Origin: Candidatus Nomurabacteria bacterium
GTDB lineage: Bacteria; Patescibacteriota; Minisyncoccia; Phycocordibacterales; CAIJYI01
Reading direction: 5' to 3'
NCBI GenBank assembly: GCA_943356445.1
Contig: CALREZ010000003.1
Location: forward strand, 6,125 to 70,124
DNA: 64,000 nt
In this document: positions 924-64,000 of the stretch, in pieces
How the letters are laid out: the number at the start of each line of letters is the position of its first letter
How positions within the stretch are numbered: the first letter of the stretch is position 1
The notes under the pieces: model-generated
Told to the model about the DNA's origin: nothing
The model's database searches: none
What the model saw: the letters and a program-made list of their open reading frames with translations, nothing else
Made by a program: the position numbers and the translations under genes

Positions 924-1271
924 TCAGTCCGTCACATATTTTACATATTCAAGCTGGATCCGAACAACTTCATCTTGATCTAAATGCCCTATTTTCTTTT
1001 GCAGTAAACTGGTGTCGGCAGCAAAAGATTGAGCCAAGAGAACATAAGAAATTATATTCAATCCATTGTCTGACGTCGGAGCAATTTCCACAACGTATTT
1101 CCGATAAAGCTTCTTTTGGGAAGTACAAGGAGCAACCGTAACAGTTTCGCCCGTTACTTGAGTAACAATAACATGGGGACGTATTCCGCTTTGAACATAA
1201 CCGACAGCATTGGAGTTTTCTATCAGATACACATCTCCTTTTTCTATTTTTTTAGGTGTTGTTTTTTGCAT
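924..1271 (-). CDS. Type II toxin-antitoxin toxin, MazF/PemK family endoribonuclease
   Basis: The KGDVYLIE...GYVQSGIRPHVIV...VAPCTS pattern is typical of PemK/MazF (GDI..V.F.P..G.E..G.RP.LV.S). Confidence 0.7.
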   Translation of the reverse strand: MQKTTPKKIEKGDVYLIENSNAVGYVQSGIRPHVIVTQVTGETVTVAPCTSQKKLYRKYVVEIAPTSDNGLNIISYVLLAQSFAADTSLLQKKIGHLDQDEVVRIQLEYVKYVTD

Positions 1272-1374
1272 GAAGAAGCGCTTGTTGTTGCAAAGCGATT
1301 TGTTTCCAAAACTGACGCTCTTGCGTCATTTTAGAAAGTGATGGTTTATAGTTTTTCTTTTCTGTGATTTTCAT
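1252..1374 (-). CDS. 40-aa micro-ORF upstream of and overlapping the MazF start by 20 nt; candidate cognate antitoxin
   Basis: Manual translation gives MKITEKKNYKPSLSKMTQERQFWKQIALQQQALLHAKNNT*. Its stop overlaps the MazF ATG, which is the typical antitoxin-toxin arrangement. No family was recognised. Confidence 0.25.
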   Translation of the reverse strand: MKITEKKNYKPSLSKMTQERQFWKQIALQQQALLHAKNNT

Positions 1375-1692
1375 ACAATGATAATAATACAAATTTTCGT
1401 ATTAAGCAAACAGTATTTTAAATGGACAAATCGGCAACAAAAAAAAGCTTGCCTTAAGACAAACTATTTTTTTGTCTTTGTTTCTTGTATCAAAACGCAT
1501 TACGCGCCCGATATATCCGGAAACAAATTTGGTCTCTTTTCCTTATTCACTCACACTCAGAGGAAAAGAGAAAATGAAAGTACTCTGCTCTTTTTTTATT
1601 ATACCTCACCCAAAAGCGCGAAATCAAGAATGTTTGTGGATAAAACCGTTTTTTTCATATACACAGGAGGCTTTTTGTGTTACTCTATTGAC

Positions 1693-3645: not shown

Positions 3646-3714
3646 AATAAAAATACTTTTTAGTCTCTTAAAAACTAACGAGAATGAAAATTCTTGCGAG
3701 TCTGCCGTACAATT

Positions 3715-4236
3715 ATGAAAGAAAAAAATAGTGAAGAAATAAAAATAGTATCGCCTTTGGAAGAAGCTTCCATAAAAGTAACGGCGTGGGTGGGTACGCC
3801 CGTTTCTGTCGTCATGCACACGATATTCTTCATCGGAATTTTTTCCCTGAAATGGTTCGGCATGCCTCTTGACCAAATACTTCTTGTTCTCACTACGGCA
3901 GTATCGTTGGAAGCGATTTATCTCGCGATTTTCATTCAGATGACCATCAACCGCCAAGAAGCAAAACTTCATGAAGTGCGCGAAGACATTGAAGAACTCG
4001 GTGAGGATGTTGAGGAGATCGGAAAGGATGTTGATGAGCTGTCGGAAGACCTTGAAGAAATCGGGAAGGACGTTGACGAACTCGGCGAAGACTTTGAAGA
4101 GATAACGGAAGATATGGAGGAAGAAGAAAAGAAAGAAGAGCAATATCGTTCAGAAAGAAACAAAAATCTGCAAAAAATAGAGACGACGCTCCAATCGCTT
4201 ATTGTGGAGTTGGAAAAGATGAAGGAGAAGAAGTAA
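3715..4236 (+). CDS. DUF1003-family membrane protein with a C-terminal acidic coiled-coil built from tandem 11-residue repeats
   Basis: LDQILLVLTTAVSLEAIYLAIFIQMTINRQEAK matches the DUF1003 core (..LSLEA......I.MSQNRQ). The C-terminus repeats EDVEEIGKDVDELSEDLEEIGKDVDELGEDFEEI. Confidence 0.55.
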   Translation: MKEKNSEEIKIVSPLEEASIKVTAWVGTPVSVVMHTIFFIGIFSLKWFGMPLDQILLVLTTAVSLEAIYLAIFIQMTINRQEAKLHEVREDIEELGEDVEEIGKDVDELSEDLEEIGKDVDELGEDFEEITEDMEEEEKKEEQYRSERNKNLQKIETTLQSLIVELEKMKEKK

Positions 4237-4240
4237 AAAA

Positions 4241-4302
4241 GAATAAAGCAAAAAGAAAAAAGAATGACGACGAGCGTTTCCTTTTTTCTTTTTGCTTTAT
4301 TC
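4241..4302. terminator. Perfect 22-bp inverted repeat (GAATAAAGCAAAAAGAAAAAAG ... CTTTTTTCTTTTTGCTTTATTC) between convergent genes; probable bidirectional terminator
   Basis: The palindrome was read directly; it sits between the DUF1003 stop at 4236 and the SMC stop at 4313. Confidence 0.5.
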
Positions 4303-4312
4303 TTTTTCCTTT

Positions 4313-7862: not shown

Positions 7863-7949
7863 GCCGTGTCTCCTTTTGAAAACAAGTTCCATATTTATAT
7901 AAACACAAAAAGAAAAGCGAGTCAACATGACTCGCTTTTCTTTTTGTGT

Positions 7950-10628: not shown

Positions 10629-10701
10629 ATATATTTAGATAAAAAAGAAAAACCAATAATGATTTTTCTTTTGTTTATGATACAAGAGTAGGTAAAGATT
10701 G

Positions 10702-11553
10702 TCAAATTCCCGGCAGAGCGCTCGGCAGAGCCTCTAGAGCAGCAGCTTGAGAAGCCGCCGATTTATCGGTTTTTGGCTTTTTATACTCGTTTATGGCGCT
10801 TTGAATTTGGGCCGAAGAAAGAGAAAAACCCTTGCCTTCCGCCGGAATCATATTGATTCCGATAACCCTTCCATCAACCCCGAATATCGGGCCTCCTCGG
10901 TCGGAAAGAGATAAAGAGAGAGAACTCAGTATCTGGGATTTTGTAATTTCCGAAACAATTCCTTGCGAGACGGCTCCGCCGCTTTTTCCTCCGAGAGAAA
11001 GAATGGTTTGTCCGAGTTTCGGATCCGAGAGAGAAAGAGGCGCCCCGCGAAGAGTGATAAGTTTTTTATCGTCAAACAGTTCCAAAAGCGCCACACCCGT
11101 TTTTTCATCAACAAAAACTTTTTTACCCGTATATGTTTTTCCATTCAGAAGAGTAACGGAAAATTCATTCCATTCGCCCAGAACGCCGGCATCGGTAGCC
11201 ACCACCCCGCCCCCGTCGGCAAGAAATCCAATCCCGCGTTTTTCCCCTTCGCTCGTTTCGGTTTTTGGAGTAAAGATGCTTGCCATGTAGGAAAGATTGG
11301 ATTGCACGGAAGCAACAATTTGGTCGTTCTCGGTTAAAACGGGAGCAACCGCCGGAACTTTAATAACCGAAGGCGTCGTTGTTCCGGTAACGACCCGTTC
11401 TATCGTTTTTTCCACAATGCGATTGAAGGTTTGAGAAATGACGGGCGTAGAATCGGTAAGCATGGATACGATAACGATACTCGTCGCCGTAGAAGCAACG
11501 AAACTTACCAAAAGATTCAAGAGCACTATTTGTTGTTTTGTGAGATCTTCCAT
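10702..11553 (-). CDS. Membrane-anchored trypsin-like (HtrA/S1 fold) protein, apparently catalytically inactive (pseudo-protease)
   Basis: S1-like blocks GFLADGGGVVATDAGVL, TGVALLEL and LSDRGGPIFGVDGRVIGIN align to TNNHV, DLALLK and GNSGGP. H, D and S are each replaced (G, G, R). The N-terminus has a TM helix. Start taken at MEDLTKQ. Confidence 0.55.
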   Translation of the reverse strand: MEDLTKQQIVLLNLLVSFVASTATSIVIVSMLTDSTPVISQTFNRIVEKTIERVVTGTTTPSVIKVPAVAPVLTENDQIVASVQSNLSYMASIFTPKTETSEGEKRGIGFLADGGGVVATDAGVLGEWNEFSVTLLNGKTYTGKKVFVDEKTGVALLELFDDKKLITLRGAPLSLSDPKLGQTILSLGGKSGGAVSQGIVSEITKSQILSSLSLSLSDRGGPIFGVDGRVIGINMIPAEGKGFSLSSAQIQSAINEYKKPKTDKSAASQAAALEALPSALPGI

Positions 11554-47386: not shown

Positions 47387-47495
47387 TTCTGGCGGCTACC
47401 TACTCTTCCCCCGAAGGAGTACCATCGGTACTACGGCGCTTAACTGCTGAGTTCGAAATGAGATCAGGTGTGACCACCGCGTCAAGCCACCAAAA
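47387..47495 (-). rRNA. rrf: 5S ribosomal RNA
   Basis: Reverse complement TTTTGGTGGCTTGACGCGGTGGTCACACCTGATCTCATTTCGAACTCAGCAGTTAAGCGCCGTAGTACCGATGGTACTCC...GGGAAGAGTAGGTAGCCGCCAGAA, with helix I termini pairing. Confidence 0.85.
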
Positions 47496-47749
47496 CAAAA
47501 AACTCAAAGAGTTTTTCGGAGAAAAAAGTTAAAAGCAGAAAGTTGAAAGTGACGAAATCGTCGGACTTTTTACTTTTACCTTTTTTCTTTTTATTTATAT
47601 TATTTACAGAATCGTTTCGCAAGCATTTTAATCAAAAGACGTAAGTAGAAAGTTAAAAATAAAAAGATAAAAGTAATGCCGTCGCCGGACTTTTTACTTT
47701 TAACTTTCTACTTTTTTCTTCATGTGTGATTTTCAACTTTCCTAATAGG

Positions 47750-51145
<3,396 letters not shown>

Positions 51146-51726
51146 GGAAAGTTAAAAACCACGAAATCGTTTTTCCACCGCTGGACCAAACGACTTCTAC
51201 TTTTATACTTACTTTTTTTGATTTACCTGCTCCGTCTGCCGTCTCTTATAAGAACGGCGACGGGCTTGCTTGTCCCCCATAGCTCTTTGAAAAAGAGCGA
51301 CGGGGGACGCTGTCTGCGACCCGAAAAGACCCGACCGAGAAACTTGCGTCTCCCGGCTATTGTCTAAAAGTCGCGACAGGATTCTGTTGTCAAATTGCTT
51401 ATCAGTCTCAGTCAACTTTCTAAAAAGTCGCCCCAAGGCGACCATGACGACAATGAATGTCATCCAAGTCACCTATGAAAAATCAACTTTCTTTTCCATA
51501 CAACGTGCTACCCATTATATACAAAACAAATTCCATGTCAACCATTCTTTCCACGGCTCTATTACAGGGTAATTTGGGGGTTCAAAAAACGGGTGGAGAA
51601 AAGAGCGGGAATGATTTTGAAAGAAAAAATAATTTTTTCGGACATTCCCCTCATGCTTTCCAACGGACTGTTATACGCCGCTTATGATCAGCCAAAAAAT
51701 CAAAAAGCGGAGACCGACATCTTCGC

Positions 51727-51755
51727 GAGCTTGCTTTCTTTCTCAAAACTGATAT
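51727..51755 (+). promoter_or_regulatory. Sigma-70-like promoter (TTGCTT-N16-TATAAT) for secG
   Basis: The -35/-10 hexamers sit about 10 nt upstream of the ATG at 51766. Confidence 0.4.
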
Positions 51756-51765
51756 AATCGGAGTA

Positions 51766-51999
51766 ATGAATTTCATCGCAAACATTTTACCGTGGGCTCA
51801 GATCGTACTGTCTGTCCTTATGACCGGTCTTATCCTCCTTCAAAGGAGCGACGCCAGCCTTGGCAGCGCTTTTGGCGGATCTGACAGCGCTTCCATGTAT
51901 ACGAGACGCGGAGCGGAAAAGATTCTCTTCAACATCACTATTGCCGTAGCGGTACTCTTTACCCTGTCTGCCCTTCTCGCTCTTGCCGTTTCCTCATAA
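51766..51999 (+). CDS. secG: Preprotein translocase subunit SecG
   Basis: 77 aa, two TM helices, and the LLQ...G.G.AFGG signature (ILLQRSDASLGSAFGGSDS). Confidence 0.7.
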   Translation: MNFIANILPWAQIVLSVLMTGLILLQRSDASLGSAFGGSDSASMYTRRGAEKILFNITIAVAVLFTLSALLALAVSS

Positions 52000-52175
52000 T
52001 ATCTCAAATTCGTAAAAGTATTCATACTTTCCATTCGTTCATCAATATATTGAACATTTTTTTGTTCACGTTTTTATCAATCCAATCTATAACCTGAGAA
52101 CCTGCCCATTTGGACGAGGCGACATGAAAGCCCTGAGCCTTCAATCTATCTCTCTTTCGTTGAATCCATAGCGTT

Positions 52176-53999
52176 ATGGAGTCACGCCCGAAAAGCACGT
52201 TCTTTTCATTTTTTGTGGAAGAAACCAACGACATCGTACAAAAGATCCGAGCGAGAAGATCGCAGTTTTATTCGCTGAGAGAAAAACTATCGCTCGTTAT
52301 CCATTCCTTTTCGCGAAAAGAAAAAATGCTTTTCGGTTCTTTCTTGGTTGTCGCGGCCATAAGCGCCATAGCCATCTTTTCTCTCGTGAGCCAATCATAC
52401 ATGGTAACTGAACCGGCATATGGCGGTTCTTTCTCTGAGGGTATCGTCGGGACGCCGAGGTTTATCAATCCGGTGCTCGCCCTCTCTGATTCCAGTTCGG
52501 AAAAAGATCTGGTGGAACTCATTTATTCGGGACTGCTTCGCGCGGGAGCGAACGGAGAGCTCAAACCGGATCTCGCGGAAAAATATGTCATTTCCGAAGA
52601 TAATCTTGAATATACGTTTACACTCAAGAAAAATCTTGAATGGAGCGACGGCAAACCGATTACCGCGGACGATGTCGTCTTTACCATACAAACGATACAG
52701 AATCCGGCAATCCGCAGTCCGAAGAAAAGTTCTTGGGACGGAGTGACGGTAGAAAAAATTGATACCGACACAATAAAGTTCGCGCTGAAACGCCCTTACG
52801 CGCCTTTTCTTGAAAATCTCACTATCGGAATTCTCCCGAAACACCTCTGGGGAGATCTCGCTCCGGAACAATTCGTGTACAGTTCCTACAATAACAACCC
52901 GATCGGTTCCGGGCCTTTTAAAATTAAAACGATAACGCAAAACAATTCGGGAATTCCCGAAAGCTATACGCTTGAACCTTTTGAAAAATTCGCTTTGGGC
53001 AAACCGCATCTCGGGAATATCACCCTCCGTTTCTATCCGAATTACGAAGCGCTGATTGCGGGATACAAATCGGGAGAAGTTTCTTCCCTTGCCGCGCCTT
53101 CGCCGGAGAATGTCATGAATTTGAAAAATTCGGGGAACTATATAAAAGCGACGCCTCTTCCGAGAATTTTTTCCGTCTTTCTCAACCAAAACCAGCAGCA
53201 GCTTTTCGTGGACAAAACCGTCCGCAAGGCGCTGGATACCGCGGTTGATAAAGACAAAATTATCAGCGACGTACTTTTGGGATATGCGACAAAAATAGAC
53301 GGGCCGCTTCCTCCGGGGGTGGTCGGGTCATTGGAAGACGACAGCGCCAGCACGGCAAGCGCCGATGAACGGATTGGATCGGCAAAAAATATCCTCCTGA
53401 AAGACGGTTGGAAATTGAATGCCAAAACCGGCGTTATGGAAAAAGCGGTGAAGAAAAAACCCACGCAGACTCTGCAATTTTCTCTCGCCATTTCTCAAGA
53501 TGAAGAACTCAAGAAAATCGCCGAAATGATGAAGAAAGACTGGGAAAAGATCGGAGCGAAAGTGGAGATTAAAATATATGAAGAAGGAGATCTGATTCAG
53601 ACGGTTATCCGCCCGAGAAGTTACGACGCTTTGCTCTACGGCGAAATCGTCGGACGGGATCCCGATCCGTATTCCTACTGGCATTCTTCGCAGCGTTTCA
53701 ATCCCGGGCTCAACATCGCGCTGTATGCGAACGTAACCACCGACAAGCTCCTGGAAAAAGCGCGGGAAGAATCCGACCGAGATAAACGCTCCGACCTCTA
53801 TCAAAAATTCCAAAAAGAAGTCATGCGCGACGACCCCGCGATATTCCTTTACAGTCCGAATTTCATTTATCTCCTGCCGAACAATATCCAGGGAGTAAAT
53901 CTTTCCGGAATGGCCGTCCTTTCAGATCGCTTCGTCAACGCCAACCAATGGTACGCTCGCACTCAAAAAGTTTGGAAGATATTTGCGGGGACAAAATAA
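52176..53999 (+). CDS. ABC transporter substrate-binding protein, family 5 (oligopeptide/nickel type); orphan, with no permease genes nearby
   Basis: An N-terminal TM/signal and SBP_bac_5-like blocks across about 550 aa; start uncertain. Confidence 0.7.
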   Translation: MESRPKSTFFSFFVEETNDIVQKIRARRSQFYSLREKLSLVIHSFSRKEKMLFGSFLVVAAISAIAIFSLVSQSYMVTEPAYGGSFSEGIVGTPRFINPVLALSDSSSEKDLVELIYSGLLRAGANGELKPDLAEKYVISEDNLEYTFTLKKNLEWSDGKPITADDVVFTIQTIQNPAIRSPKKSSWDGVTVEKIDTDTIKFALKRPYAPFLENLTIGILPKHLWGDLAPEQFVYSSYNNNPIGSGPFKIKTITQNNSGIPESYTLEPFEKFALGKPHLGNITLRFYPNYEALIAGYKSGEVSSLAAPSPENVMNLKNSGNYIKATPLPRIFSVFLNQNQQQLFVDKTVRKALDTAVDKDKIISDVLLGYATKIDGPLPPGVVGSLEDDSASTASADERIGSAKNILLKDGWKLNAKTGVMEKAVKKKPTQTLQFSLAISQDEELKKIAEMMKKDWEKIGAKVEIKIYEEGDLIQTVIRPRSYDALLYGEIVGRDPDPYSYWHSSQRFNPGLNIALYANVTTDKLLEKAREESDRDKRSDLYQKFQKEVMRDDPAIFLYSPNFIYLLPNNIQGVNLSGMAVLSDRFVNANQWYARTQKVWKIFAGTK

Positions 54000-54250
54000 A
54001 CTCAACTACAAAAAACTATTACTTAACAAATCATGAAAGAGGTGTTCCAAAGCACCAAATAAAAAAATCACAAGTTCCAACAAATCACAAAATAAAAAAA
54101 TAATAAAATATATTTAAGATTTTTATTTTTGAAAATTAAAATTTATTTGGAGCTTGAGGTTTTGAATTTGAGATTTTGATTCACCAAAAAGCATGAGCTA
54201 ATTCAAGAGAAAGAAAAGATTTATTATCTTTCCTTTGCAAAATATAATAT

Positions 54251-56329
54251 ATGCAGGAAGAACAGAACAAGAAGAATCCGCCGTCGGGAACGAATCCGTT
54301 TCAACGGCCGGTACGGCAGGGTCCTCCGCGAAAATTGCCGCCGATGAAAAGACGGCCGAAGACTTCGGTGGGAGAACCGATGCGGCACGAACAGATGCGC
54401 CGCCCGGATTTTCCGCAGGCAAACACGCCAACGAATGCGCCGCAGCAAAAACCGCAGGCTCGCAGAAACCAAAAAATGTTCCGGCAGGGAGCGCAAAATT
54501 CGTCCGGAAATAAAACGGCGCCGGCAGACGGCGGGCATTTTTCAAAACCGAAAAGCCGGATGAACCCGGGAAAAGGATTGCGCAATCCCGGCAAACGCCC
54601 CGCGCCGAAAGAATCATCCGCGCCCTCGCCGAGAATGGGAACCCGCATTCCCGAAGTAAAAGAAGATACGATCCGCATCATTCCCTTGGGCGGAGTGGAA
54701 GAAATCGGAAAAAATCTCACCGTTTTTGAAACCAAAGACGATATTTTCGTCGTTGATATGGGACTGCAGTTCCACGACGAAGAAACGCCGGGGGTTGATT
54801 TCATTCTTCCGAACACCCGTTATCTTGAAGAAAGAAAAGACAAAATTCGCGGAGTCTTCATTACGCACGGACACTTGGATCATATCGGAGCAATTCCCTT
54901 TATCATGCCGAAGATCGGCAATCCGCCTTTGTACGCCCGAAACCTGACCGCCGTTCTCATTCAAAAAAGACAGCTGGAATTCCCGAACTTCCCTGCGCTG
55001 GATATTCGCATCGTTGAAAAGAATGACCGAATAAAAGTCGGGCAATCGCATATTGAATTCTTCGCCGTCAGCCACTCCATTCCCGATGCGATGGGAGTTA
55101 TCTTCAATACGAACCACGGCGATGTCGTCTTCACCGGAGACCTTCGCGTGGATAACGATGCCGGCGTACCGACCGAAGCCGAAGTGGAAGTATTCTCGCG
55201 ATTCAAAGACCGCCGCCCGCTGCTTCTCCTTTCCGATTCCACCAATGCCGACTCTCCGGGTTTTTCCCTTTCCGAAAAAGTCGTTCTCAAAAACATAGAA
55301 GAGATCATCCGCGAAACCCGAGGACGTCTCATTATCGGAACATTTTCCTCGCAGCTGGAACGCATCATTAAGATCATCAAAGTCTGCGAAGCCTTCGGCA
55401 AAAAAATCGTCATTGAAGGACGAAGCATGAAGGTGAATATAGAAGTCGCGAAAGAAGTCGGGTTGCTTCAAATAAACAAAGACACGATTATCGGCTCAGA
55501 CCAGATGGAACAATATCCGGCGAATAAGATCGTCGCCATCGTGACCGGTTCGCAGGGCGAAGAATTCGCCGCGCTCATGCGCATGTCCAATAAAACCCAC
55601 AAGCATTTCAAGATCACCAAAAGCGATACCGTGCTGCTTTCCTCTTCCATCATTCCGGGCAACGAAATGGGCGTACAAAAAATCAAAGACAACCTTTCCC
55701 GCCAAGGCGCAAGGATCATTCACTCCAAAATGTCGGATGTCCACGCTTCCGGCCACGCGAACGGCGACGAAATCGGCTGGTTGCATCGCCAAATCGGAGA
55801 AAAATTCTTTATTCCGATTCACGGATTCCACTACAAACTCCGCTCCAACGGCGACATCGCCATCGCGGCGGGAGTTCAGGAACAGAACGTCGTCATTCCC
55901 GACAACGGAATGATTATAGAAATAGAACGCGGAGAAAAAATTCACGCCATCAAAGAGAAAGCGGTTTCCGGACTCGTGCTCGTTGACGGATTTTCCATCG
56001 GCGACATGCAGGAAGTCGTCATGCGCGACCGCCAGATGCTCGCCCAAGACGGCATGTTCATCATCGTCGCCGTCGTAGACATCGCCACCAAAAAACTCCG
56101 AAAATCCCCCGACATCCTCTCCCGAGGTTTCGTCTATCTCAGAGAATCCCAAGACCTCCTCCGCCAATCCCGATACATCATCAAAAAAACAATAGAGGAT
56201 TCCATAGAATCCATGAACCCTATCAACTTTGATTTCGTAAAAGCCACGGTCACAGACAGCACAGCAAGGTTCCTCTTCCAACAGACTGCCAAGAGACCGA
56301 TAATTCTCCCAGTAATTCTGGGGGTGTAG
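54251..56329 (+). CDS. rnj: Ribonuclease J (metallo-beta-lactamase/beta-CASP) with a roughly 140-aa basic, low-complexity N-terminal extension
   Basis: IIPLGGVEEIGKNLTVFE, HGHLDHIG, beta-CASP motifs and an RNase J C-terminal domain. The N-terminal 140 aa are Q/P/R/K-rich. Confidence 0.85.
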   Translation: MQEEQNKKNPPSGTNPFQRPVRQGPPRKLPPMKRRPKTSVGEPMRHEQMRRPDFPQANTPTNAPQQKPQARRNQKMFRQGAQNSSGNKTAPADGGHFSKPKSRMNPGKGLRNPGKRPAPKESSAPSPRMGTRIPEVKEDTIRIIPLGGVEEIGKNLTVFETKDDIFVVDMGLQFHDEETPGVDFILPNTRYLEERKDKIRGVFITHGHLDHIGAIPFIMPKIGNPPLYARNLTAVLIQKRQLEFPNFPALDIRIVEKNDRIKVGQSHIEFFAVSHSIPDAMGVIFNTNHGDVVFTGDLRVDNDAGVPTEAEVEVFSRFKDRRPLLLLSDSTNADSPGFSLSEKVVLKNIEEIIRETRGRLIIGTFSSQLERIIKIIKVCEAFGKKIVIEGRSMKVNIEVAKEVGLLQINKDTIIGSDQMEQYPANKIVAIVTGSQGEEFAALMRMSNKTHKHFKITKSDTVLLSSSIIPGNEMGVQKIKDNLSRQGARIIHSKMSDVHASGHANGDEIGWLHRQIGEKFFIPIHGFHYKLRSNGDIAIAAGVQEQNVVIPDNGMIIEIERGEKIHAIKEKAVSGLVLVDGFSIGDMQEVVMRDRQMLAQDGMFIIVAVVDIATKKLRKSPDILSRGFVYLRESQDLLRQSRYIIKKTIEDSIESMNPINFDFVKATVTDSTARFLFQQTAKRPIILPVILGV

Positions 56330-56345
56330 AAACAATTAGACAATC

Positions 56346-56375
56346 AAATAAAAAAACCGGCAACGCCGGTTTTTT
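56346..56375 (+). terminator. Rho-independent terminator (AAAAACCGGCAACGCCGGTTTTTTT)
   Basis: Hairpin plus T-run after the rnj stop. Confidence 0.6.
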
Positions 56376-56385
56376 TATTTCATCG

Positions 56386-56649
56386 TTAGTTTATTACCTC
56401 TATATTATCGGGATCAACCGCTTTTATATTTAAAATATCTTCAGTTTTTATATCCCGATAATCATTAAGGACTTTATTTTCAGAACTAAACATAACCCGA
56501 ATCAAATCATCACTTTCTTCAAGAAGCACACCAAAGCATTTATAGATGTGGCAATTTTCTGTCTTTTCAGCACTCAAGACAAAAGAAACTTCTACAAAAA
56601 GATTGTGTGGTTCATTTCCAGAATAAAATTTTGGTATCAATTGGTTCAT
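56386..56649 (-). CDS. Hypothetical small protein (AT-rich island)
   Basis: ORF only; 4-nt gap to the upstream ORF. Confidence 0.4.
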   Translation of the reverse strand: MNQLIPKFYSGNEPHNLFVEVSFVLSAEKTENCHIYKCFGVLLEESDDLIRVMFSSENKVLNDYRDIKTEDILNIKAVDPDNIEVIN

Positions 56650-56652
56650 AAA

Positions 56653-57153
56653 TTATTTTACTTCCTTTACCTCCAAAACAACTGATTTCGGAATAATCCA
56701 ATATTTTTCATCACTATTATGATGCCTCCTTTCAGGAAGGGGTTGCATGCGAGTCGTTTTAGAGTTTTTTAAAACAAGACGATCTTCTTCGTTCTTTTCT
56801 AAAATACCTTCCGTTATCATAATTGAAGGATTAGGAAGTTTTGTGTTATCAACAAAAACAACATCGCTCCATTTTATGGATATTTTTGAAAAAGCCCGCA
56901 GTCCATCAAAAAGATTATGATCAAATTTTTTACTCTCGGAGACTAAATTAGTTTTCGGTATAATGAGTCCCTGAACAAGATTACCGGGATTATCAACTTC
57001 TGAAGATACTCCTTTTATAAACCGTACGACAACCATCTGGTCGCGCTTTTCAGCCCACCCAAAGGCACGATGGACCGGCAATTCAGTATCCTGAATCTGT
57101 TCATCATTATAAGAGTAGGCATCAACGAATCTTACGACGCTAAGTTTTTCCAT
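56653..57153 (-). CDS. Hypothetical protein (AT-rich island)
   Basis: ORF only. Confidence 0.45.
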   Translation of the reverse strand: MEKLSVVRFVDAYSYNDEQIQDTELPVHRAFGWAEKRDQMVVVRFIKGVSSEVDNPGNLVQGLIIPKTNLVSESKKFDHNLFDGLRAFSKISIKWSDVVFVDNTKLPNPSIMITEGILEKNEEDRLVLKNSKTTRMQPLPERRHHNSDEKYWIIPKSVVLEVKEVK

Positions 57154-57603
57154 ATAGGTATATGTTATATTAAATTAAAAACACAGGCAAACGATTTTCA
57201 TTTGTCTGTGTTGGCGTTGAAGCGCGTTGTTATCCGTTACCGCCAAAAAAACGCGAGATGTTTGCGAGAACGCCGTTGTCGTCACTCCATCTTTTTTCAA
57301 GAGCCTCGCGATCTTTTATGAGAGGTTTCCCGTTCGTTTCAGGGTCTCCGCGAGTGAAATTTGTTTCGGAATCTTTTTCAGCATGGTCACGAGCCATGTG
57401 TTTTGCCGCAGATGTCCTGCTTGTCGTTTCGCCAGTTTCTTCAGCATCTTCTTCTATGTCTCTTCTGCTCACTTGTCTTCTCCTTAAAAAAGAACAATCA
57501 TTGTCATAAATTGACAACTTTTCAAATCTAGCACACAACCAAAATTGTGTCAAAAAACAGAACAAAGGCGAACATTGCAAAAAGGAACCAACAAAAGAAA
57601 CAA

Positions 57604-57672
57604 AATCGGGTCAATTCCCCCTATTTGACCCGATTGGGTTTAGAAAAACCGGCTATTTTTAGCCGGTTTTTT
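57604..57672. repeat. Left 70-bp direct repeat bounding the R-M cassette; consists of two hairpins (AATCGGGTCAA...TTGACCCGATT and AACCGGCTA-TTTT-TAGCCGGTT followed by a T-run)
   Basis: About 88 percent identical to 61092-61161 by eye, with the same two-hairpin architecture. Confidence 0.7.
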
Positions 57673-57681
57673 GTGTTTATA

Positions 57682-58032
57682 TTACTTCTTTTTTGAAACA
57701 GCTTCCTTACTACTCGCGTTATCTTTTTGGATCACAGTTATATGTTTCCCATTTTTTAAAAATGGAAATGAGTATTTCTCTTTTTTAGATTCGTCTGTCA
57801 TCGTTAAAATCGACGCATCAATAACTGATACAATATCTAAAGACTTTTGCTGAATAGATTCACTTGTGCTTATAGCCGTCAACCGCAACGACATCTCTTT
57901 TAACGCGCCAAGGTTGTATTCTAACCATTTTTCTTTTGAGCGCTTATCTATCCATTGAAAGACAACGACAAGAGAAAGAATGATATTAAATGTTTCAGAA
58001 TATGTAGTGAAAAATGTAGTAATTTTTTCCAT
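57682..58032 (-). CDS. Hypothetical protein inside the cassette
   Basis: ORF only; one N-terminal hydrophobic helix. Confidence 0.4.
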   Translation of the reverse strand: MEKITTFFTTYSETFNIILSLVVVFQWIDKRSKEKWLEYNLGALKEMSLRLTAISTSESIQQKSLDIVSVIDASILTMTDESKKEKYSFPFLKNGKHITVIQKDNASSKEAVSKKK

Positions 58033-58080
58033 AATTTCATTTTATAAATTAAAGTATTCTCCTTCTTATTGGTTCGTTTG

Positions 58081-58782
58081 TTACGGCTTTTTTTCTTCAT
58101 CCGGCATGTCCTGTAACAACTTTTCAGTTAATTTATCTGCTTCTATCCATCTTATCGTAAGTTCTATTAAATCTTTAAGGTCTTTTACATCTTTATTAAC
58201 CCACTTTCGTTCATAGTGTGTCTCATCATTCCCAAGCCAAGCAGCACGTTTAGTAACAATTTTTAATTGTTGCTGATCAACTCTCTTTTCTATAGTATTT
58301 CCTAAAAATTCCTTTTTAATATCTTCTGCCTCGGCTATATTTTTAGAAATAAGATAATCTTTAATAAGAAATTCAAGAGCTTTACGGTAGCCAGGACCAC
58401 ACACCATGTCTAATTCATTTTGTTCTGCAAAATACGATTGATTGTAAATTTTCTCAAATTCAGAAGAAACTTGCTGGATGATTTCAGAAAATTGACGAGT
58501 GGTATTTTTAACTGGTAATGATTTCTTTAAATAAAAAAATTGTGGAGTTCCAGAATATAATCCTAAAAAAATATTCTGACATTTTTCACTCGGACACCTA
58601 AAAACAATCTGAAGGCCTGTTTCATCATATACACCCTCTTTATAAAATCCTTGACCTATATTTGGAGTGATTTGTTTATGGCAAACAGGACATAAATCAG
58701 GTCTTTTATCATATTTTGCCACCACGTTTGAACCATTTTGGTGTATTGCTTGTATATTAAACATGTTACTTTTAAATTCCAA
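58081..58782 (-). CDS. Zinc-ribbon protein with a DUF4145-like C-terminal region; candidate defence-associated protein
   Basis: CPVCHK...(22)...CPSEKC four-Cys ribbon. The C-terminal RAAWLGNDETHYERKW...LIELTIRWIE resembles the DUF4145 xGNxxxH block; this is from memory and uncertain. Confidence 0.45.
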   Translation of the reverse strand: MEFKSNMFNIQAIHQNGSNVVAKYDKRPDLCPVCHKQITPNIGQGFYKEGVYDETGLQIVFRCPSEKCQNIFLGLYSGTPQFFYLKKSLPVKNTTRQFSEIIQQVSSEFEKIYNQSYFAEQNELDMVCGPGYRKALEFLIKDYLISKNIAEAEDIKKEFLGNTIEKRVDQQQLKIVTKRAAWLGNDETHYERKWVNKDVKDLKDLIELTIRWIEADKLTEKLLQDMPDEEKKP

Positions 58783-58880
58783 TAACCTTTTTATTATAAA
58801 AACTTTTTTGTGGATAACTTTTTGATTTTCTATTTTTTTTCTATTATACTATTTCTATAAATACAAAGTCAACAAACACA

Positions 58881-60389
58881 ATGCTCACAAAACGACCGAA
58901 AGAAGTTCTTGATTTTATTAAAGAGTACTCAAAAAAGAAAGGGTATGCCCCCTCTTTGGAGGAAATCCAACGAAAGTTAAAACTTGCGTCAGTCTCTACT
59001 GCTCATTTTCACGTAACCAAACTTAAAGAAGGAGGCTATTTAGATAAAGTTGGAAATAAAGCTCGTGCAATTAGTCTTACCTCCAGTGAACGATTAGTAA
59101 AAATCCCCCTCTTAGGAATAATAGTTGCGGGCTTTCCGATAGAAACGATTTCCGAAAAGGAGACAATCGCTATTCCTCAAAGCAAAGTACCAAAACAAGG
59201 TTCTCTCTTTGCTCTAAAAGTGATGGGAAATAGCATGATAGAAGAAAATATAAATGACGGAGATATTGTTTTAATAAAACAACAATCCGTAGCGGAAAAT
59301 GGCGAAAAGGTTGTGGCTTTGGTAAATAATTACGAAACGACATTAAAAAAGTTTTACCAAGAAAAAAATTGCATTCGTTTAGAGCCGGCGAACAGAAAAA
59401 TGGATTCCATTATTATTTCCAAGAATACTCCGTTTGAAATTCAAGGCATTGTCACCGATATTATCAAAAGCGAAGAAAATACCGATTACAATACTTTCAT
59501 TTCAAGAAATCTTGTTTCAAGAGAAAAAAAGTTACCATTGAATAAAATTATTCTCAATGACGCGGTTGAAGAATTAAGAAAATTACCAAGCGAAAGCTGT
59601 GATGTTATAATCATTGATCCGCCTTACAACATAGGGAAAGATTTCGGGAATAATTTTGATAAAAGAGAAATGTCCGAATATGTAAAATGGTCAAAAAGCT
59701 GGATTGAAGAATCTATCAGGATTATGAAACCAACAGGAACATTATTCATTTATGGATTTAGTGAAATACTCGCACATCTTTCTGTTGAAATTTCTCTTAA
59801 TAAAAGATGGCTTATTTGGCATTACACCAATAAAAATGTCGCCTCTTTGCAGTTCTGGCAGAGAAGCCATGAATCAATAATTTGCGCTTGGAAAAATAGG
59901 CCTATTTTTAATCGTGACGAAGTGAGAGAACCTTACACGGAGGGTTTTTTAAATGGAGCTGCCGGCAAAGTAAGAAAGGGGACAATCGGCCGTTTTAGCA
60001 AAAATGGAAAAGAAACCGTTTATAATGCGCATGAAGGAGGTGCATTACCGAGAGATGTTATAAAAATACCAGCACTTGCCGGAGGTGCAGGAATGAACGA
60101 AAGATGGTTCATTTGCAAAACATGCAAAAACAATGTGTTTTCTCCAAGAGAGCTCAAACAGCATGCTGATCACGATGTAATGAAACACCCGACTCAAAAA
60201 CCAATTGAACTTTGTAGAAAGCTCATTAAATCCGCAATGCCAAAAAATGGCGGTGTCGTTCTCGTACCTTTCGTCGGAACCGGCTCTGAATGTCTCGCGG
60301 CAAAAGAACTTGGCAATGACTATATCGGTTTTGAAATCAATCCGGATTATATAAAGATCGCAGAGAAAACGATCTCATCATTAGATTAA
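58881..60389 (+). CDS. Fusion protein: a complete LexA-like repressor (winged HTH plus S24 autopeptidase) joined to a beta-class DPPY DNA methyltransferase (N6-adenine or N4-cytosine)
   Basis: Residues about 1-200: PSLEEIQRKLKLASVSTAHFHVTKL (HTH), IPLLGIIVAGFP (Ala-Gly cleavage site), LKVMGNSM (catalytic Ser) and TTLKKF (catalytic Lys). Together these align block-for-block with LexA. Residues about 215-502: IIIDPPYN (motif IV) precedes VPFVGTGSE (motif I), which is the beta-class order, plus HPTQKP. Confidence 0.8.
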   Translation: MLTKRPKEVLDFIKEYSKKKGYAPSLEEIQRKLKLASVSTAHFHVTKLKEGGYLDKVGNKARAISLTSSERLVKIPLLGIIVAGFPIETISEKETIAIPQSKVPKQGSLFALKVMGNSMIEENINDGDIVLIKQQSVAENGEKVVALVNNYETTLKKFYQEKNCIRLEPANRKMDSIIISKNTPFEIQGIVTDIIKSEENTDYNTFISRNLVSREKKLPLNKIILNDAVEELRKLPSESCDVIIIDPPYNIGKDFGNNFDKREMSEYVKWSKSWIEESIRIMKPTGTLFIYGFSEILAHLSVEISLNKRWLIWHYTNKNVASLQFWQRSHESIICAWKNRPIFNRDEVREPYTEGFLNGAAGKVRKGTIGRFSKNGKETVYNAHEGGALPRDVIKIPALAGGAGMNERWFICKTCKNNVFSPRELKQHADHDVMKHPTQKPIELCRKLIKSAMPKNGGVVLVPFVGTGSECLAAKELGNDYIGFEINPDYIKIAEKTISSLD

Positions 60390-61000
60390 ATTTCTCCGAT
60401 TGTTTTGATATTTTTTAAAGTAATATAATTAGAGAGTTTTTTGTTATAAACAGACAGCTGTTGTAAAACGTCTTTCTTTTCTCTTCCTGGTGGAATTATC
60501 ACGATAAATCCCCATTCTATTAATTTTTCTATCGTGACATTTTGAGTTGAACGACTTCCATCTTTTCTTTGTGTGACTCTTTCCAAAAGATATTGTCCCA
60601 ATTTTTTATTTTGCCCAAAAACAAGAAACTGTAAATCGCTCGCCCCTTTCCAGACAGCAACTACGGTAAATAGCTTTTTATCAGAAAAAGCTTTTGCTTT
60701 TTCTTCGTTTGTATCATTCCATGTCCCACCCCATCTTTTAGAAGATAAACTACACTGTTTTACCTCAAGAAATTCCCCTGTTGAACTTCTTTTAGCATCA
60801 AAACCGTGCTTTTCGGTATTAACCAAATCAAAACCCAAATAACCCGCAACGATAGTATCTCTTATTGAATTTATTGTTGTATCGGTATCGTATATTTCAA
60901 ATTTATCTTGAAATTCTGACAATTGTTGCAAAGCTAATAATCCCAATTGTTTGAATTCGTTTGAAAGCGGTTTAAAATTTCCCTTTTCAAAAATGTTCAT
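60386..61000 (-). CDS. Putative type II restriction endonuclease (PD-(D/E)XK-like), convergent with and overlapping the methyltransferase gene by 4 nt
   Basis: Position opposite the MTase, and GFDAK-(x9)-EFLEVKQ fits D...(D/E)xK. No family was recognised, so this is inference. Confidence 0.4.
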   Translation of the reverse strand: MNIFEKGNFKPLSNEFKQLGLLALQQLSEFQDKFEIYDTDTTINSIRDTIVAGYLGFDLVNTEKHGFDAKRSSTGEFLEVKQCSLSSKRWGGTWNDTNEEKAKAFSDKKLFTVVAVWKGASDLQFLVFGQNKKLGQYLLERVTQRKDGSRSTQNVTIEKLIEWGFIVIIPPGREKKDVLQQLSVYNKKLSNYITLKNIKTIGEI

Positions 61001-61091
61001 AAAGTAATTTTATTACCACACTAATACCCCAAGTATCTCTCTACTCTACCACGGAGGAGTTTCAAAAACAAAGGCTGTCCCCAAGAGAACG

Positions 61092-61161
61092 AATCGGGTC
61101 ATTTGCTCCTATTTGACCCGATTGTGGGTTGGAAAAACCGGCTGTTTTTGGCCGGTTTTTA
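61092..61161. repeat. Right 70-bp direct repeat bounding the R-M cassette
   Basis: AATCGGGTCATTTGCTCCTATTTGACCCGATTGTGGGTTGGAAAAACCGGCTGTTTTTGGCCGGTTTTT against the left copy at 57604-57672. Confidence 0.7.
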
Positions 61162-61178
61162 GGGTATTCGAGTGCTGG

Positions 61179-61604
61179 TTATTTTCCTCTCAGTTTTATG
61201 GATTTATAGAGGACGATTATAAGGGAAATGATGATGAAGACGGCAGACGTGAGAAAAGCGACGACCTGCTTGTCTATGAGCGAGGGCATGTAGCCGCCGG
61301 ATTGACCGTCGGGGGTGATGAGGACGAGAAGCATGGACATGGGTACCCACCATTTTGCAAAACGAAGCCATGAACGGAAAGTTTCTTCGCGGAGAGGGTA
61401 GGTGATGAGAGAGAAGATCGTGATAGGTAAAAATGACAAAAACATCAATTCAATTAAATACAAAACGTCCATACATGGGTAAATATTACCGTCAAGATAA
61501 CCTATCGTTGTACAAAGTTTAGTATTACCCAGATTGTCGGCTATCAGTAAAACTATTGATATAAGTATAGAAATACTTAATACTTTTCCCTTTGTTAATT
61601 TCAT
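61179..61604 (-). CDS. Hypothetical integral membrane protein
   Basis: Three or four predicted TM helices; ORF only. Confidence 0.45.
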   Translation of the reverse strand: MKLTKGKVLSISILISIVLLIADNLGNTKLCTTIGYLDGNIYPCMDVLYLIELMFLSFLPITIFSLITYPLREETFRSWLRFAKWWVPMSMLLVLITPDGQSGGYMPSLIDKQVVAFLTSAVFIIISLIIVLYKSIKLRGK

Positions 61605-61651
61605 ACCTCAAAAATTAATTTCTAACCACTCCATTATACCACACCTTATCC

Positions 61652-64000
61652 CTACCACTTCCATATTATCCACAACGCGCCCCCGACAAAAGAAACGAGG
61701 AGAATTCCTTCAGCGGCTTTTGTTTTGGGGAAGAATGGGGTGGCGAGGAGAGAGGAGGATTGGATTGATGGAGTTGTGGTTGGGACGACGACGGACGACG
61801 TGGATTCCGGCTCAGGGCCGGAATGACGGGGGACGGGAGATGTGTTTATTGCCGTTTCGTTATTATTGCGAATGACAAACGAAGGATTCTGAGAAAGTAC
61901 CACTCCTTCCCCAAGGTCTCCCCTTTCCCCGTCGCTTTGCTCCTCCTTAAGGGAAGACCTTGGGGAAGGAATCACGTTTTGTGAAAGAAACAACACGGGG
62001 ACAGCGCCGGAAACGACGGGTTTTGATTCTTCTTTTTTGGGACTCAAATCGGGGAGTACTGTTTCTCCCGCTTTCGGAGAGAGTGTGAATTCCAAAATGC
62101 CGTCGCCGTTTTCGTCTACCAATAAAGGCGATAGGTTTGATATTTCTCCACCCGCAGAGATATTCATGGTTGCGGTCGTGTTTTCATTACTCGGTATTCC
62201 GGCGAAAGAAGAGGAAGAAAGAACGGTATCGCCGCTGACGGTTTCCACCTCAAGGGTGAACGAGCCTTCTTCGTAGCCATCTAGAAAAAGACGAACGTTT
62301 GCAGTACTGGGGATGCTGACGTATTTCACTTCGCCGAAAGTCATGTACCTGCTGCCGGGGATGTTTTCTTCTGTTTGGTTTGTCGTAGTGGAAACGCCGG
62401 TGTGGTTGCCAAGATTGTCGTAGAAATCAATAGTAAGAGGAGAATGGAGGGTAAAACGGAGACGAACATCATTTTCGTTTCCTTGTGGAGCAAGAGTTGA
62501 AACATATTGAACGGCAGAAGAGCTATTACGAGTCACAATACCTCTAACAAAAGTAAGAAGTTCTGGAACTTCAAAAATATCTGAGTGATGTCTTCCAAGA
62601 GGAGCGGAAATAACATGTTCTTTATTATACTTTCTCAAATCCACCCAATACTTCCTCGCTCCGCTCGTCCAGAGCGCGCTGCTCGTCACGACCGTTCCAT
62701 CTCCGTCTATCGTCATGACCGGACGGAATTCCAACGCGGGGTCGGTATGGCAGGCTTCCAGGGTTGCTACGGTTTTGCAGCCGGTTTTTGAACCTTGATA
62801 ATACTCAATCGTCTTCAGCGTTTCTTCTCCCCAGCCGGCGATTTCGGTGAGTTCCACTCCGGTCGGAGGCGCCCAAGCGTCAAGGGTATTATGCAAAAGT
62901 GCGGCGTTATCAAAAAGTGCCGTATTCCCTTTCCATGGGTTTTTCAAATCGTCGTTCACTGCCAGAGCTTCCCGATTTTGGTCGGTCATAAAATTCCGCA
63001 ATCTTTCTTCGGAGCGTATCGTCGTTCCGTATTTTGCGCGCCAGTCGGCGAGCAAAGGAAAATCACCGAACTTGATAACCGGGTCATCGGTGTACGTAAA
63101 GTAATTTGCGGACGGCAGTAATCCGTAAGCGCTCGGCATGTTGTTGGCGAGGGTTCTTGCCTCCGACGGCGTAATGATATTGTTGAGCCAGTTATCAAAC
63201 GGGAGGCCTTGCTGGAAACCGTGCAGAATCGCTCCGACCGCGGACGGCGTTCCCGATTGAGGAGAAGCGACGAAAATCATTTGATCGGTGAGTTTGGAGG
63301 CGTCATCTCCCAATTTTATCGTTAATTCTTTTGCCACCAAACCGCCGTTGGAGTGCGCGATGATCGTCACTTTTCCCGTGTCCGAAGTTTCGGCGAGCGC
63401 GCGATATTTTTGCACCATCGCATCATCTACGGTATCAACCACAGAGTATCGCCAGTCATATGGGAATGATTGCCAGTTATGTATCGTTCCGTCGGTTTTC
63501 AGGTCATTCATTTTTCCCATGAACGACTGATAGATATTTCCTTTTACCGGCGCATAGGCGTTATCAATAATATCGCCGGCATATATTCCCGAGAGTATGG
63601 AAGTTCCGTCGCTGTTCATATAGAGATGCGAGTTGTCGTGGAGAATTTCCGGTTCCCACAATCTCGTGCCATCCAAACGATACAATCGGCTCGCTTCCAA
63701 CCCCGGCAAAAACGCCACGTTGGAATATCCGGCAGTAAATGAAAGTTCCCCGCTTGCCGGAAATCGCAACGTTCCGCCGTTCGCTTCAAAGTGATATCCG
63801 TAATGGCCTTTCGGGAAAGTTTGAACGAGAGAATATGCGCCGTTATCCAAAGCGAGTGAATAATGACTGGTCGCATTTCCATCATTCGTCCAAAGCATTA
63901 CATCGCTTGGCGCTGTTCCCGTGTAAGAAACGCCGAAAGTGAATTTCGTTTTATCGGCAACGCCTTTCGCATCTTGCCATCCGTCGTCCTCCGTTTCGGT
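61652..64000 (-). CDS. Large secreted alpha/beta-hydrolase (lipase/PGAP1-like, GHSxG-type AHSNGG nucleophile elbow) with a Pro/Ser/Thr-rich stalk and C-terminal TM anchor; the N-terminus lies beyond the window end
   Basis: TIIAHSNGGLVAKEL nucleophile elbow; C-terminal PEPESTSSVVVPTTTPS linker plus ILLVSFVGGALWIIWKW anchor. The reading frame stays open through 64000. Confidence 0.6.
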   Translation of the reverse strand, partial: TETEDDGWQDAKGVADKTKFTFGVSYTGTAPSDVMLWTNDGNATSHYSLALDNGAYSLVQTFPKGHYGYHFEANGGTLRFPASGELSFTAGYSNVAFLPGLEASRLYRLDGTRLWEPEILHDNSHLYMNSDGTSILSGIYAGDIIDNAYAPVKGNIYQSFMGKMNDLKTDGTIHNWQSFPYDWRYSVVDTVDDAMVQKYRALAETSDTGKVTIIAHSNGGLVAKELTIKLGDDASKLTDQMIFVASPQSGTPSAVGAILHGFQQGLPFDNWLNNIITPSEARTLANNMPSAYGLLPSANYFTYTDDPVIKFGDFPLLADWRAKYGTTIRSEERLRNFMTDQNREALAVNDDLKNPWKGNTALFDNAALLHNTLDAWAPPTGVELTEIAGWGEETLKTIEYYQGSKTGCKTVATLEACHTDPALEFRPVMTIDGDGTVVTSSALWTSGARKYWVDLRKYNKEHVISAPLGRHHSDIFEVPELLTFVRGIVTRNSSSAVQYVSTLAPQGNENDVRLRFTLHSPLTIDFYDNLGNHTGVSTTTNQTEENIPGSRYMTFGEVKYVSIPSTANVRLFLDGYEEGSFTLEVETVSGDTVLSSSSFAGIPSNENTTATMNISAGGEISNLSPLLVDENGDGILEFTLSPKAGETVLPDLSPKKEESKPVVSGAVPVLFLSQNVIPSPRSSLKEEQSDGERGDLGEGVVLSQNPSFVIRNNNETAINTSPVPRHSGPEPESTSSVVVPTTTPSIQSSSLLATPFFPKTKAAEGILLVSFVGGALWIIWKW

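Follow-up and report, generated by a model that had tools for sequence, protein, structure and literature searches.

Palindromes of the repetitive extragenic palindrome (REP) and bacterial interspersed mosaic element (BIME) families in E. coli act as terminators or mRNA stabilizers, and they are present in hundreds of copies per genome. Among type II restriction-modification systems, the methyltransferases of the SsoII and EcoRII classes carry an N-terminal helix-turn-helix (HTH) domain for self-regulation. PvuII is a restriction-modification system that is controlled by a C protein (PMC2175313), and HEPN (DUF4145) proteins have been linked to restriction-modification operons (Anantharaman et al., 2013, PMC3710099). 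At integron attC sites and at the attachment (att) sites of genomic islands, in turn, AT-rich accessory genes are flanked by direct repeats that can form hairpins. Features reminiscent of all these systems come together in a 64,000-nucleotide stretch of a Candidatus Nomurabacteria contig (CALREZ010000003.1; the whole stretch is called the window below), where two direct repeats, each built from two hairpins, bracket four genes that include a LexA-DNA methyltransferase fusion and a nuclease.

The initial annotation of this locus proposed that the repeats mark the acquisition of a defense cassette. Our analysis leads to a mostly ordinary explanation, in which a duplicated terminator module lies beside a resident type II restriction-modification pair within a small hot spot for defense genes. 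Specifically, we consider it probable that the repeats are paralogous copies of an ~80-nucleotide tandem, partly bidirectional intrinsic-terminator module, and that they are not the borders of a mobile unit. At this location the genes predate the repeats, as is evident from synteny and synonymous divergence, and the general point is that direct repeats surrounding AT-rich defense genes are insufficient to infer insertion. The features on which the argument rests are listed here by position in the window, where ORF denotes an open reading frame and GC3 the GC fraction at third codon positions.

56350-56376, plus strand: terminator of the RNase J gene, AAAAAAACCGGCAACGCCGGTTTTTTT, which has the A-tract/CCGGC/T-tract design of hairpin 2 and is kept in the sister species (L037)
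56376-58809, no strand: block that is variable relative to the sister species, holding ORFs of 87, 166 and 80 aa, the left module, and the genes for the 116-aa and 233-aa proteins
57595-57678, minus strand: left two-hairpin module (hairpin 2 at 57644-57671, hairpin 1 at 57604-57635)
57682-58032, minus strand: 116-aa ORF with no Pfam, PADLOC or NCBIfam match, GC3 of 0.33, absent from L037
58081-58782, minus strand: gene for a 233-aa protein, in which a four-cysteine zinc-ribbon beta domain at the N terminus precedes a HEPN-like (DUF4145-like) helical domain at the C terminus
58808-58880, plus strand: conserved region upstream of the methyltransferase gene, in which TTTTCTA-N4-6-TTCTAT(T/A)ATA comes after TGTGGATAAC
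58881-60389, plus strand: LexA-methyltransferase fusion of 502 aa (Pfam PF01726, PF00717 and PF01555)
60386-61000, minus strand: gene for a candidate type II restriction endonuclease of 204 aa (PD-(D/E)XK, PvuII-like fold)
61083-61166, minus strand: right two-hairpin module (hairpin 2 at 61133-61160, hairpin 1 at 61092-61123)
61179-61604, minus strand: gene for a 141-aa membrane protein, the last gene of an LCAT-like operon, with the right module after its stop codon

The repeats themselves are as first described. A blastn-short alignment of the left copy (57604-57671) with the right copy (61092-61160) yields 88.4% identity over 69 nucleotides with one 1-nucleotide indel (E = 1e-13), each copy contains two stem-loops, the copies are direct in orientation, and the interval between them holds exactly four ORFs. 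Approximately 9 nucleotides of weaker similarity extend leftward of both copies, and therefore the unit is ~80 nucleotides in length, spanning roughly 57595-57678 and 61083-61166. Beyond these edges the similarity between the flanks of the two copies is not above that of shuffled controls, and thus the unit is discrete. Hairpin 1 conforms to AATCGGGTCA(A)-loop-(T)TGACCCGATT, with a stem of 10-11 base pairs and a loop of ~10 nucleotides, and hairpin 2 conforms to AAAAACCGGCT-N-TTTT-N-AGCCGGTTTTT. The module folds are stable on both strands when compared with shuffled sequences (z-scores of -3.6 to -7.1).

Few copies of this unit exist in the DNA that was searched. Pattern searches for the hairpins with up to three mismatches return two sites in 64 kb, both of which are the repeats, and return none in shuffled sequences. 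A covariance model built from the module copies was used to scan the window, a 9-kb rightward extension of it (L001) and related loci; it scores the left copy at 105 bits and the right copy at 93 bits, and every other hairpin in the window and extension at 22 bits or less. A third full copy is present in L008, which derives from a related Parcubacteria metagenome-assembled genome whose homologue of the 141-aa protein is ~80% identical to that of the window. This copy resides 3′ of ileS, between two convergent housekeeping genes, and no island is present there. The copy number is therefore two in 74 kb (window plus extension), and among the genome representatives scanned the genome bearing L008 has one exact match to hairpin 1. 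A scan of JGI metagenomes for the two-hairpin pattern gave a single match, judged to be due to chance, in high-GC coding DNA; a scan of viral contigs for hairpin 1 gave none, and Rfam searches at gathering thresholds of the window and 16 related loci placed no family at the repeats. We also considered whether hairpin 1 is an over-represented word of the DNA-uptake type and rejected this, as its 8-mers occur at six sites outside the repeats, which is about the number we estimate, without shuffling, to be expected by chance in 64 kb.

Several characteristics of the module are those of a terminator. In all three full copies a stop codon on the minus strand is followed by hairpin 2 and then by hairpin 1, in the same orientation, with hairpin 2 beginning 10 nucleotides after the 116-aa ORF, 18 nucleotides after the 141-aa gene and 12 nucleotides after ileS in L008. 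Hairpin 2 has five G-C pairs followed by a run of five to six T residues on both strands, as is typical of the sequence of an intrinsic terminator, and its overall design (A run, CCGGC stem, T run) matches that of the RNase J terminator and of a hairpin at position 6644. Reading the minus strand of the left copy, T5 follows hairpin 2 and TTTTGTTTCTTTT follows hairpin 1, and T-rich sequence is found after hairpin 1 in two of the three copies. A terminator scan flagged the left copy as terminator-like on the plus strand, and left the right copy unflagged on that strand because its T run pairs with its A run. The right module is also located upstream of the promoter region of the nuclease gene (~61040-61055), where both species have a -10-like element (consensus TGGTA(G/T)AGT) in the stretch from the module to the start of the gene; it reads TGGTAGAGT in the window and is kept in L037 as TGGTATAGT.

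These observations can be assembled into a proposal for how the modules function and how they came to be where they are. On the minus strand, the short CCGGC-stem hairpin with its A and T runs, followed by the hairpin with the 11-base-pair stem, would terminate transcription. The right copy would thereby end the operon of the LCAT-like and 141-aa genes and would insulate the nuclease promoter, which is directly downstream on the same strand, from read-through, and the left copy would end the operon of the 233-aa and 116-aa genes. Halting read-through before the nuclease gene would be a sensible need of a restriction system, and one that L037 appears to satisfy with a different hairpin. We propose that the modules came after the methyltransferase/nuclease pair, and that turnover has affected the DNA preceding the methyltransferase promoter on its left, namely the block at 56376-58809. 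The duplication may have originated by local copying or gene conversion, the left copy may have been brought with the incoming 233-aa and 116-aa genes, or a small mobile hairpin element may have been involved.

Certain observations weigh against interpreting the repeats as a duplicated terminator. The scan tool flagged only the left copy as a canonical terminator, and only on the plus strand, and in the right copy the sequence after hairpin 1 is only weakly T-rich. A distance of no more than 3.5 kb separates the two copies, with none elsewhere in the 74 kb and the one hairpin-1 match in the genome of L008; such clustering is improbable for random dispersal, and therefore something specific to this locus should have made the pair. 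Moreover, the module is ~85-90% identical between genomes whose proteins at comparable loci are ~78% identical, which is unexpected for an ordinary terminator and implies extra constraint or mobility. Finally, a second CPR genome (L028; CPR, Candidate Phyla Radiation) also has a pair of 88%-identical direct repeats with the same hairpin stems around AT-rich DNA.

Comparison with the closest available relative, a sister species represented by L037 and L038 (from ENA sample ERZ27249449 and a JGI metagenome), separates the history of the genes from that of the repeats. The order in L037 is SecG, substrate-binding protein, RNase J, a 586-aa AAA_15/AAA_21 ATPase, LexA-methyltransferase, 204-aa nuclease, 141-aa homologue and LCAT-like, and the amino acid identities between the window and L037/L038 are 93% for the methyltransferase and 97% for the nuclease. 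By blastn, window positions 51422-56375 correspond to L037 positions 3-6108 (74-83% identity), 58810-61011 to 7929-10131 (87%), and 61179-61643 to 10272-10730 (71-79%). There is no counterpart in L037 for 56376-58809, where the sister species has the ATPase gene (L037 6123-7883), nor for the spacer that holds the right repeat, where it has a different hairpin, AAAAAATCCCCAAC-ATAA-GTTGGGGACTCTTTT. Homology restarts exactly at the region upstream of the methyltransferase gene (58808-58880), and the covariance model finds no module in L037, L038 or five further loci that carry the gene pair.

Synonymous divergence (dS) between the two species is 0.95 for RNase J, 1.01 for the LexA-methyltransferase, 1.09 for the 141-aa gene and 0.48 for the nuclease. 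Because the value for the methyltransferase equals those of the flanking core genes, this gene has been inherited with its flanks since the species split. The repeat copies are only 12% diverged and are missing from the sister species, and therefore the gene pair was in place before they were. On the strength of these sequence comparisons we conclude that the methyltransferase/nuclease pair was already at the locus in the common ancestor of the two species. The proposal that the repeats mark the acquisition of a cassette is not supported by these data: a relative with the same genes in conserved synteny and without repeats, which the initial annotation itself had named as counterevidence, exists for two of the four genes (methyltransferase and nuclease), and the search for an empty site found none in the relatives examined, the sister species keeping both of these genes without a repeat.

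Nor are the repeats the edges of inserted DNA, since the boundaries of variable DNA are 56376 and 58809 and the left repeat is inside this block, not at its edge. The bracketed DNA is indeed AT-rich, as first noted, with a GC fraction of 0.34 versus 0.44 for the window and GC3 values of 0.21-0.33 versus 0.47-0.60 for the flanking genes. However, this property is not bounded by the repeats: the AT-rich tract defined by GC3 per gene spans 56376-61011, with its left end 1.2 kb ahead of the left repeat, and the variable block also has a GC fraction of 0.34. The further suggestion that the locus is a hot spot for cassette exchange holds to the extent that it varies between relatives, but the variable part is 56376-58809 and not the interval between the repeats.

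Among alternatives to the duplicated terminator, the main rival is that the module is a low-copy REP/BIME-like or miniature inverted-repeat transposable element (MITE)-like mobile element, perhaps moved by a Y1 (IS200/RAYT-like) transposase that recognizes hairpin 1. In that case each of the two copies would represent a separate insertion that happens to act as a terminator as well. The sharp edges of the unit and the lack of flank similarity are as expected for such an element, as are the near-identical unit at an unrelated housekeeping site in the genome of L008, the replacement of the terminator 3′ of the 141-aa gene in every relative examined, and the recurrence of hairpin-1 stems with related loops in many CPR metagenome-assembled genomes. 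In addition, two relatives (L034 and L035) have a Y1_Tnp gene together with a perfect palindrome exactly at the position after the 141-aa gene. However, tblastn with the Y1_Tnp proteins of these relatives gave no match in the window, the palindromes beside the Y1 genes differ in sequence from the module, and no target-site duplication is visible. The module resembles REP/BIME elements and tandem or bidirectional Rho-independent terminators in that it consists of stable extragenic hairpins with A and T runs directly 3′ of genes and in that its copies are similar in sequence and may work in either direction, but unlike REP/BIME elements it appears to be present in low copy number (two in 74 kb, one exact hairpin-1 match in the genome of L008, and a chance match only in JGI data), has no RAYT gene in the window, unites its two hairpins in one fixed 80-nucleotide unit, and has hairpin-1 stems that are identical across distant CPR lineages. 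Given this balance, we regard a mobile hairpin element as unlikely.

A different possibility, that the repeats are attL/attR-like junctions or single-crossover products from the integration of a circular four-gene cassette, would account for their direct orientation and their exact bracketing of four AT-rich genes, and has a parallel in L028, where 119-nucleotide repeats surround an AT-rich 197-aa ORF and where two other loci (L027 and L029) hold a single module. We nevertheless judge this to be very improbable, and for the methyltransferase/nuclease pair it is already contradicted. Two of the four genes occupy this locus in the sister species without the module, the dS of the methyltransferase equals that of its flanks, the variable block and the AT-rich tract both begin 1.2 kb outside the left repeat, the module is missing from five other loci with the gene pair, and all four metagenome contigs of the window organism have the full arrangement. 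Scans with Pfam, PADLOC and NCBIfam found no recombinase domain in the four bracketed proteins or in three neighboring small ORFs of the left flank, and no tRNA or tmRNA was detected close to the repeats in a tRNA scan, which speaks against an att site of the tRNA type. Unlike integrons, the locus has no integrase that we found and, by inspection, no RYYYAAC/GTTRRRY core; the nearest match is GTTGGAA, which is in the linker of the right copy only. An integron cassette typically has one promoterless ORF, whereas this interval has four genes on both strands, and unlike islands flanked by att sites, the four bracketed genes did not arrive together in one insertion according to the comparative data. 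Alternatively, hairpin 1 might be a protein-binding operator or roadblock for the LexA domain or for a conserved CPR winged-helix protein. Its stems are identical across CPR lineages and its loops vary, the palindrome is inside or just 3′ of one HTH gene family in nine loci, and in the window one copy is upstream of the nuclease gene and the other upstream of the 80-aa ORF, both of which are on the minus strand. Against this role, hairpin 1 is not found near the LexA-methyltransferase genes in five other loci, which share TGTGGATAAC instead, the winged-helix HTH gene has no homologue in the window, and the palindrome of L008 is between convergent genes, a position that offers it no promoter to regulate. 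An operator function therefore strikes us as highly unlikely, and binding of hairpin 1 by the LexA domain in particular was rejected as unlikely because those five loci lack the hairpin and have a different upstream element.

The initial annotation read the changes in hairpin 2 as compensatory, and this is not borne out. The two differences are A-to-G transitions on the plus strand at mirrored positions, which produce G-U wobbles in plus-strand RNA but C-A mismatches that shorten the stem in minus-strand RNA, the product expected from the genes upstream of the modules. A four-sequence alignment reveals no covariation in the consensus helices, and the sole true double change, from A-T to C-G in the innermost pair, is in the L008 copy.

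A strain variant of the left copy was also encountered. The lone difference across 6.4 kb between the window and L002/L003 is a cluster of changes at 57636-57658 (L002 1829-1848), which changes the 5′ arm of the left hairpin 2 so that it is perfectly complementary to the 3′ arm and the adjoining flank (AACACAAAAAACCGGCTA / TAGCCGGTTTTTTGTGTT) and yields an 18-base-pair palindrome. Such a cluster is typical of template-switch mutation at a quasi-palindrome, and this strain-level variant is direct and independent evidence that hairpin 2 forms in vivo. Dense clusters of single-nucleotide polymorphisms relative to L002 border the 6.4-kb tract, which is otherwise identical between the two metagenome assemblies, at 56121-56296 (3′ end of the RNase J gene) and 62690-63067 (LCAT-like gene). 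These clusters suggest that the locus as a whole was recently exchanged through homologous recombination within the core genes on either side, or they could be a strain-mixing artifact near the contig ends.

Describing the bracketed genes as a restriction-modification-like defense cluster, as was done initially, is justified. They encode a LexA-S24-N6_N4 methyltransferase, a convergent PD-(D/E)XK nuclease and a zinc-ribbon/HEPN (DUF4145-like) protein, and, as in type II systems, a DNA methyltransferase with catalytic motifs adjoins a nuclease with a restriction fold. The fusion consists of a complete LexA (winged-HTH plus S24 autopeptidase) joined to a beta-class N6/N4 DNA methyltransferase, and its LexA part scores 176.6 bits with the TIGR00498 lexA model, against an NCBIfam equivalog cut-off of 110.95. 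The sequences VAG, GNSM and TLKK of this part align with A84-G85, S119 and K156 of E. coli LexA, and with the Ala-Gly cleavage site and the Ser/Lys dyad kept, the protein is apparently self-cleaving. The best 120 of 5609 proteins matching at E <= 1e-10 (a total that may include single-domain proteins) all have the same architecture, with 69-93% identity and lengths of ~500 aa, and where a source is named these 120 are all from Patescibacteria/CPR. Several of the homologues are annotated at NCBI simply as 'transcriptional repressor LexA'. In searching the literature for a LexA-methyltransferase fusion we found no description. The arrangement is like that of PvuII and of HTH-methyltransferase systems in having a convergent methyltransferase and nuclease, an attached DNA-binding domain and a PvuII-like nuclease fold, and is unlike HTH-methyltransferase systems in that the DNA-binding part is a complete and apparently self-cleaving LexA and in that the partner nuclease of relatives can be TaqI-like.

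In the loci examined, the partner of the fusion is a convergent nuclease with either a PvuII fold or an RE_TaqI domain. The 204-aa nuclease gene of the window overlaps the methyltransferase gene by 4 nucleotides, and we rejected the idea that its product is a divergent RE_TaqI, since it has no sequence similarity to that family and its fold is PvuII-like. Homologous LexA-methyltransferases in L039 and L041 (71-81% identical) are paired with RE_TaqI. The TaqI site TCGA occurs 33 times in the window when 270 occurrences are expected (observed/expected of 0.12), which is an approximately eightfold depletion, and 10 of the 33 surviving sites are within a 5S-23S rRNA stretch (47387-51145), with at least four more in tRNA genes. 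The ratio is 0.05-0.17 in the window's own organism (L001) and in six loci from relatives (L008, L034-L037 and L039); the depletion is weaker in three more distant loci with the gene pair and is absent from an unrelated CPR chromosome. Because TCGA is eightfold depleted and homologous methyltransferases pair with RE_TaqI, we infer that TCGA is the likely target of the system. The depletion also suggests that a restriction system has been acting on this lineage for a long time, and in pointing to long residence it favors the view that the repeats are terminators beside a resident pair. The hexamer AATATT is also depleted in the window (5 versus 39).

The low GC of the gene pair is common to all hosts examined (0.33-0.41); it characterizes the family and does not indicate that the pair reached this locus recently. 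Each of the five LexA-methyltransferase genes examined is preceded by an element composed of TGTGGATAAC and TTTTCTA (window 58808-58860; L037 7927-7975; L039 7950-8000; L041 7928-7975; L044 ~10140-10190, reverse strand), which is a candidate for the operator and promoter of the methyltransferase gene. The sequence TGTGGATAAC is identical to a DnaA-box consensus. A second GTGGATAACTTTT is present in L037 at 10254, giving a 28-nucleotide direct repeat (79% identical) around the gene pair. We consider the fusion with its TCGA avoidance, along with the 32-nucleotide palindrome described below whose stems are identical across CPR lineages, to be the more interesting leads from this locus. The fusion is widespread in CPR, with varied nucleases and strong avoidance of TCGA, and its architecture suggests that restriction-modification in these organisms is coupled to the SOS response.

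The slot directly upstream of the LexA-methyltransferase gene holds defense-type genes that differ from one genome to the next. In L037 it holds the AAA_15/AAA_21 ATPase, in L041 (5871-7907) it holds HEPN_Swt1, DUF5343 and a faint GIY-YIG match, and in the window it holds the zinc-ribbon/HEPN protein. This 233-aa protein is like HEPN (DUF4145) proteins in its architecture and in adjoining a restriction-modification pair, and is unlike them in that its Pfam DUF4145 match is below threshold and the canonical Rx4-6H motif is not evident; its conserved residues are W182, N185, D186 and H189. It is a candidate abortive-infection RNase, and the 116-aa ORF is probably the second gene of its operon. 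No relatives of the 233-aa or 166-aa protein turned up in searches of viral contigs.

Variation is equally evident on the other side of the gene pair. The synteny of the 141-aa gene with the LCAT-like gene is kept in L034-L037, and the DNA downstream of it differs in each genome; a search for empty sites by way of 141-aa homologues found no syntenic downstream sequence in three relatives (L034, L035 and L036). Because this DNA turns over in every relative, the site 3′ of the 141-aa gene is, as judged from these alignments, a hot spot at which rearrangements and hairpin elements recur. After the 141-aa gene, L034 (817-875) and L035 (756-813) have a Y1_Tnp (IS200/RAYT-like) gene behind a perfect long palindrome, which in L034 is ACACAGGGTAGTCCTGTGT/ACACAGGACTACCCTGTGT and resembles the REP-RAYT arrangement, here in Parcubacteria. 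At the same position L036 has paralogues of the 141-aa gene.

Hairpin 1 has a wider distribution than the two-hairpin module, as its stems recur in many CPR metagenome-assembled genomes, identical in sequence and joined by related but varying loops. In four of the nine loci that have the palindrome inside or just 3′ of the winged-helix HTH gene, the 32-nucleotide palindrome, AATCGGGTCAATTA-NNNN-TAATTGACCCGATT (L007 5470-5501, L021 7845-7876, L022 4992-5023 and L030 705-736), lies within the coding sequence for the disordered N-terminal part of a ~200-aa winged-helix protein. This protein is >80% identical among genomes labelled Gracilibacteria and Saccharibacteria, and the loop of the palindrome is inverted between copies (ACCCCT versus AGGGGT). 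In the five other loci the palindrome is just 3′ of a homologous winged-helix gene. A literature search for a palindrome conserved across CPR lineages found no description.

The repeats of L028 (complete chromosome OY969557.1) are direct, 119 nucleotides in length and 88% identical, at 48-166 and 745-863. They contain the same AATCGGGTCA/TGACCCGATT hairpin and an upstream direct copy of its arm, and they flank a 580-nucleotide segment of 29-33% GC with the 197-aa ORF, directly 3′ of the conserved winged-helix gene. The single modules of L027 and L029 are of the L028 type, and that of L029 is beside the same kind of HTH gene. One could imagine that hairpin 1, as a sequence-conserved palindrome shared across CPR, is used for recombination or insertion, such that modules seed or capture AT-rich genes and leave direct repeats of ~88% identity like those of the window and, independently, of L028, but we find this improbable, and it is likewise doubtful that there is a system of hairpin-targeted cassettes without a recognized integrase. 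The comparative data exclude hairpin-targeted insertion as the route by which the methyltransferase/nuclease pair of the window arrived.

A final observation concerns the rRNA genes to the left of the locus. The match to 23S rRNA at 47741-51145 spans 3405 nucleotides versus 2925 positions in the model, leaving ~480 extra nucleotides that are either an intervening sequence or an intron, and a gene with a 23S_rRNA_IVP domain is located ~8 kb beyond the right end of the window (L001 11916-12263).

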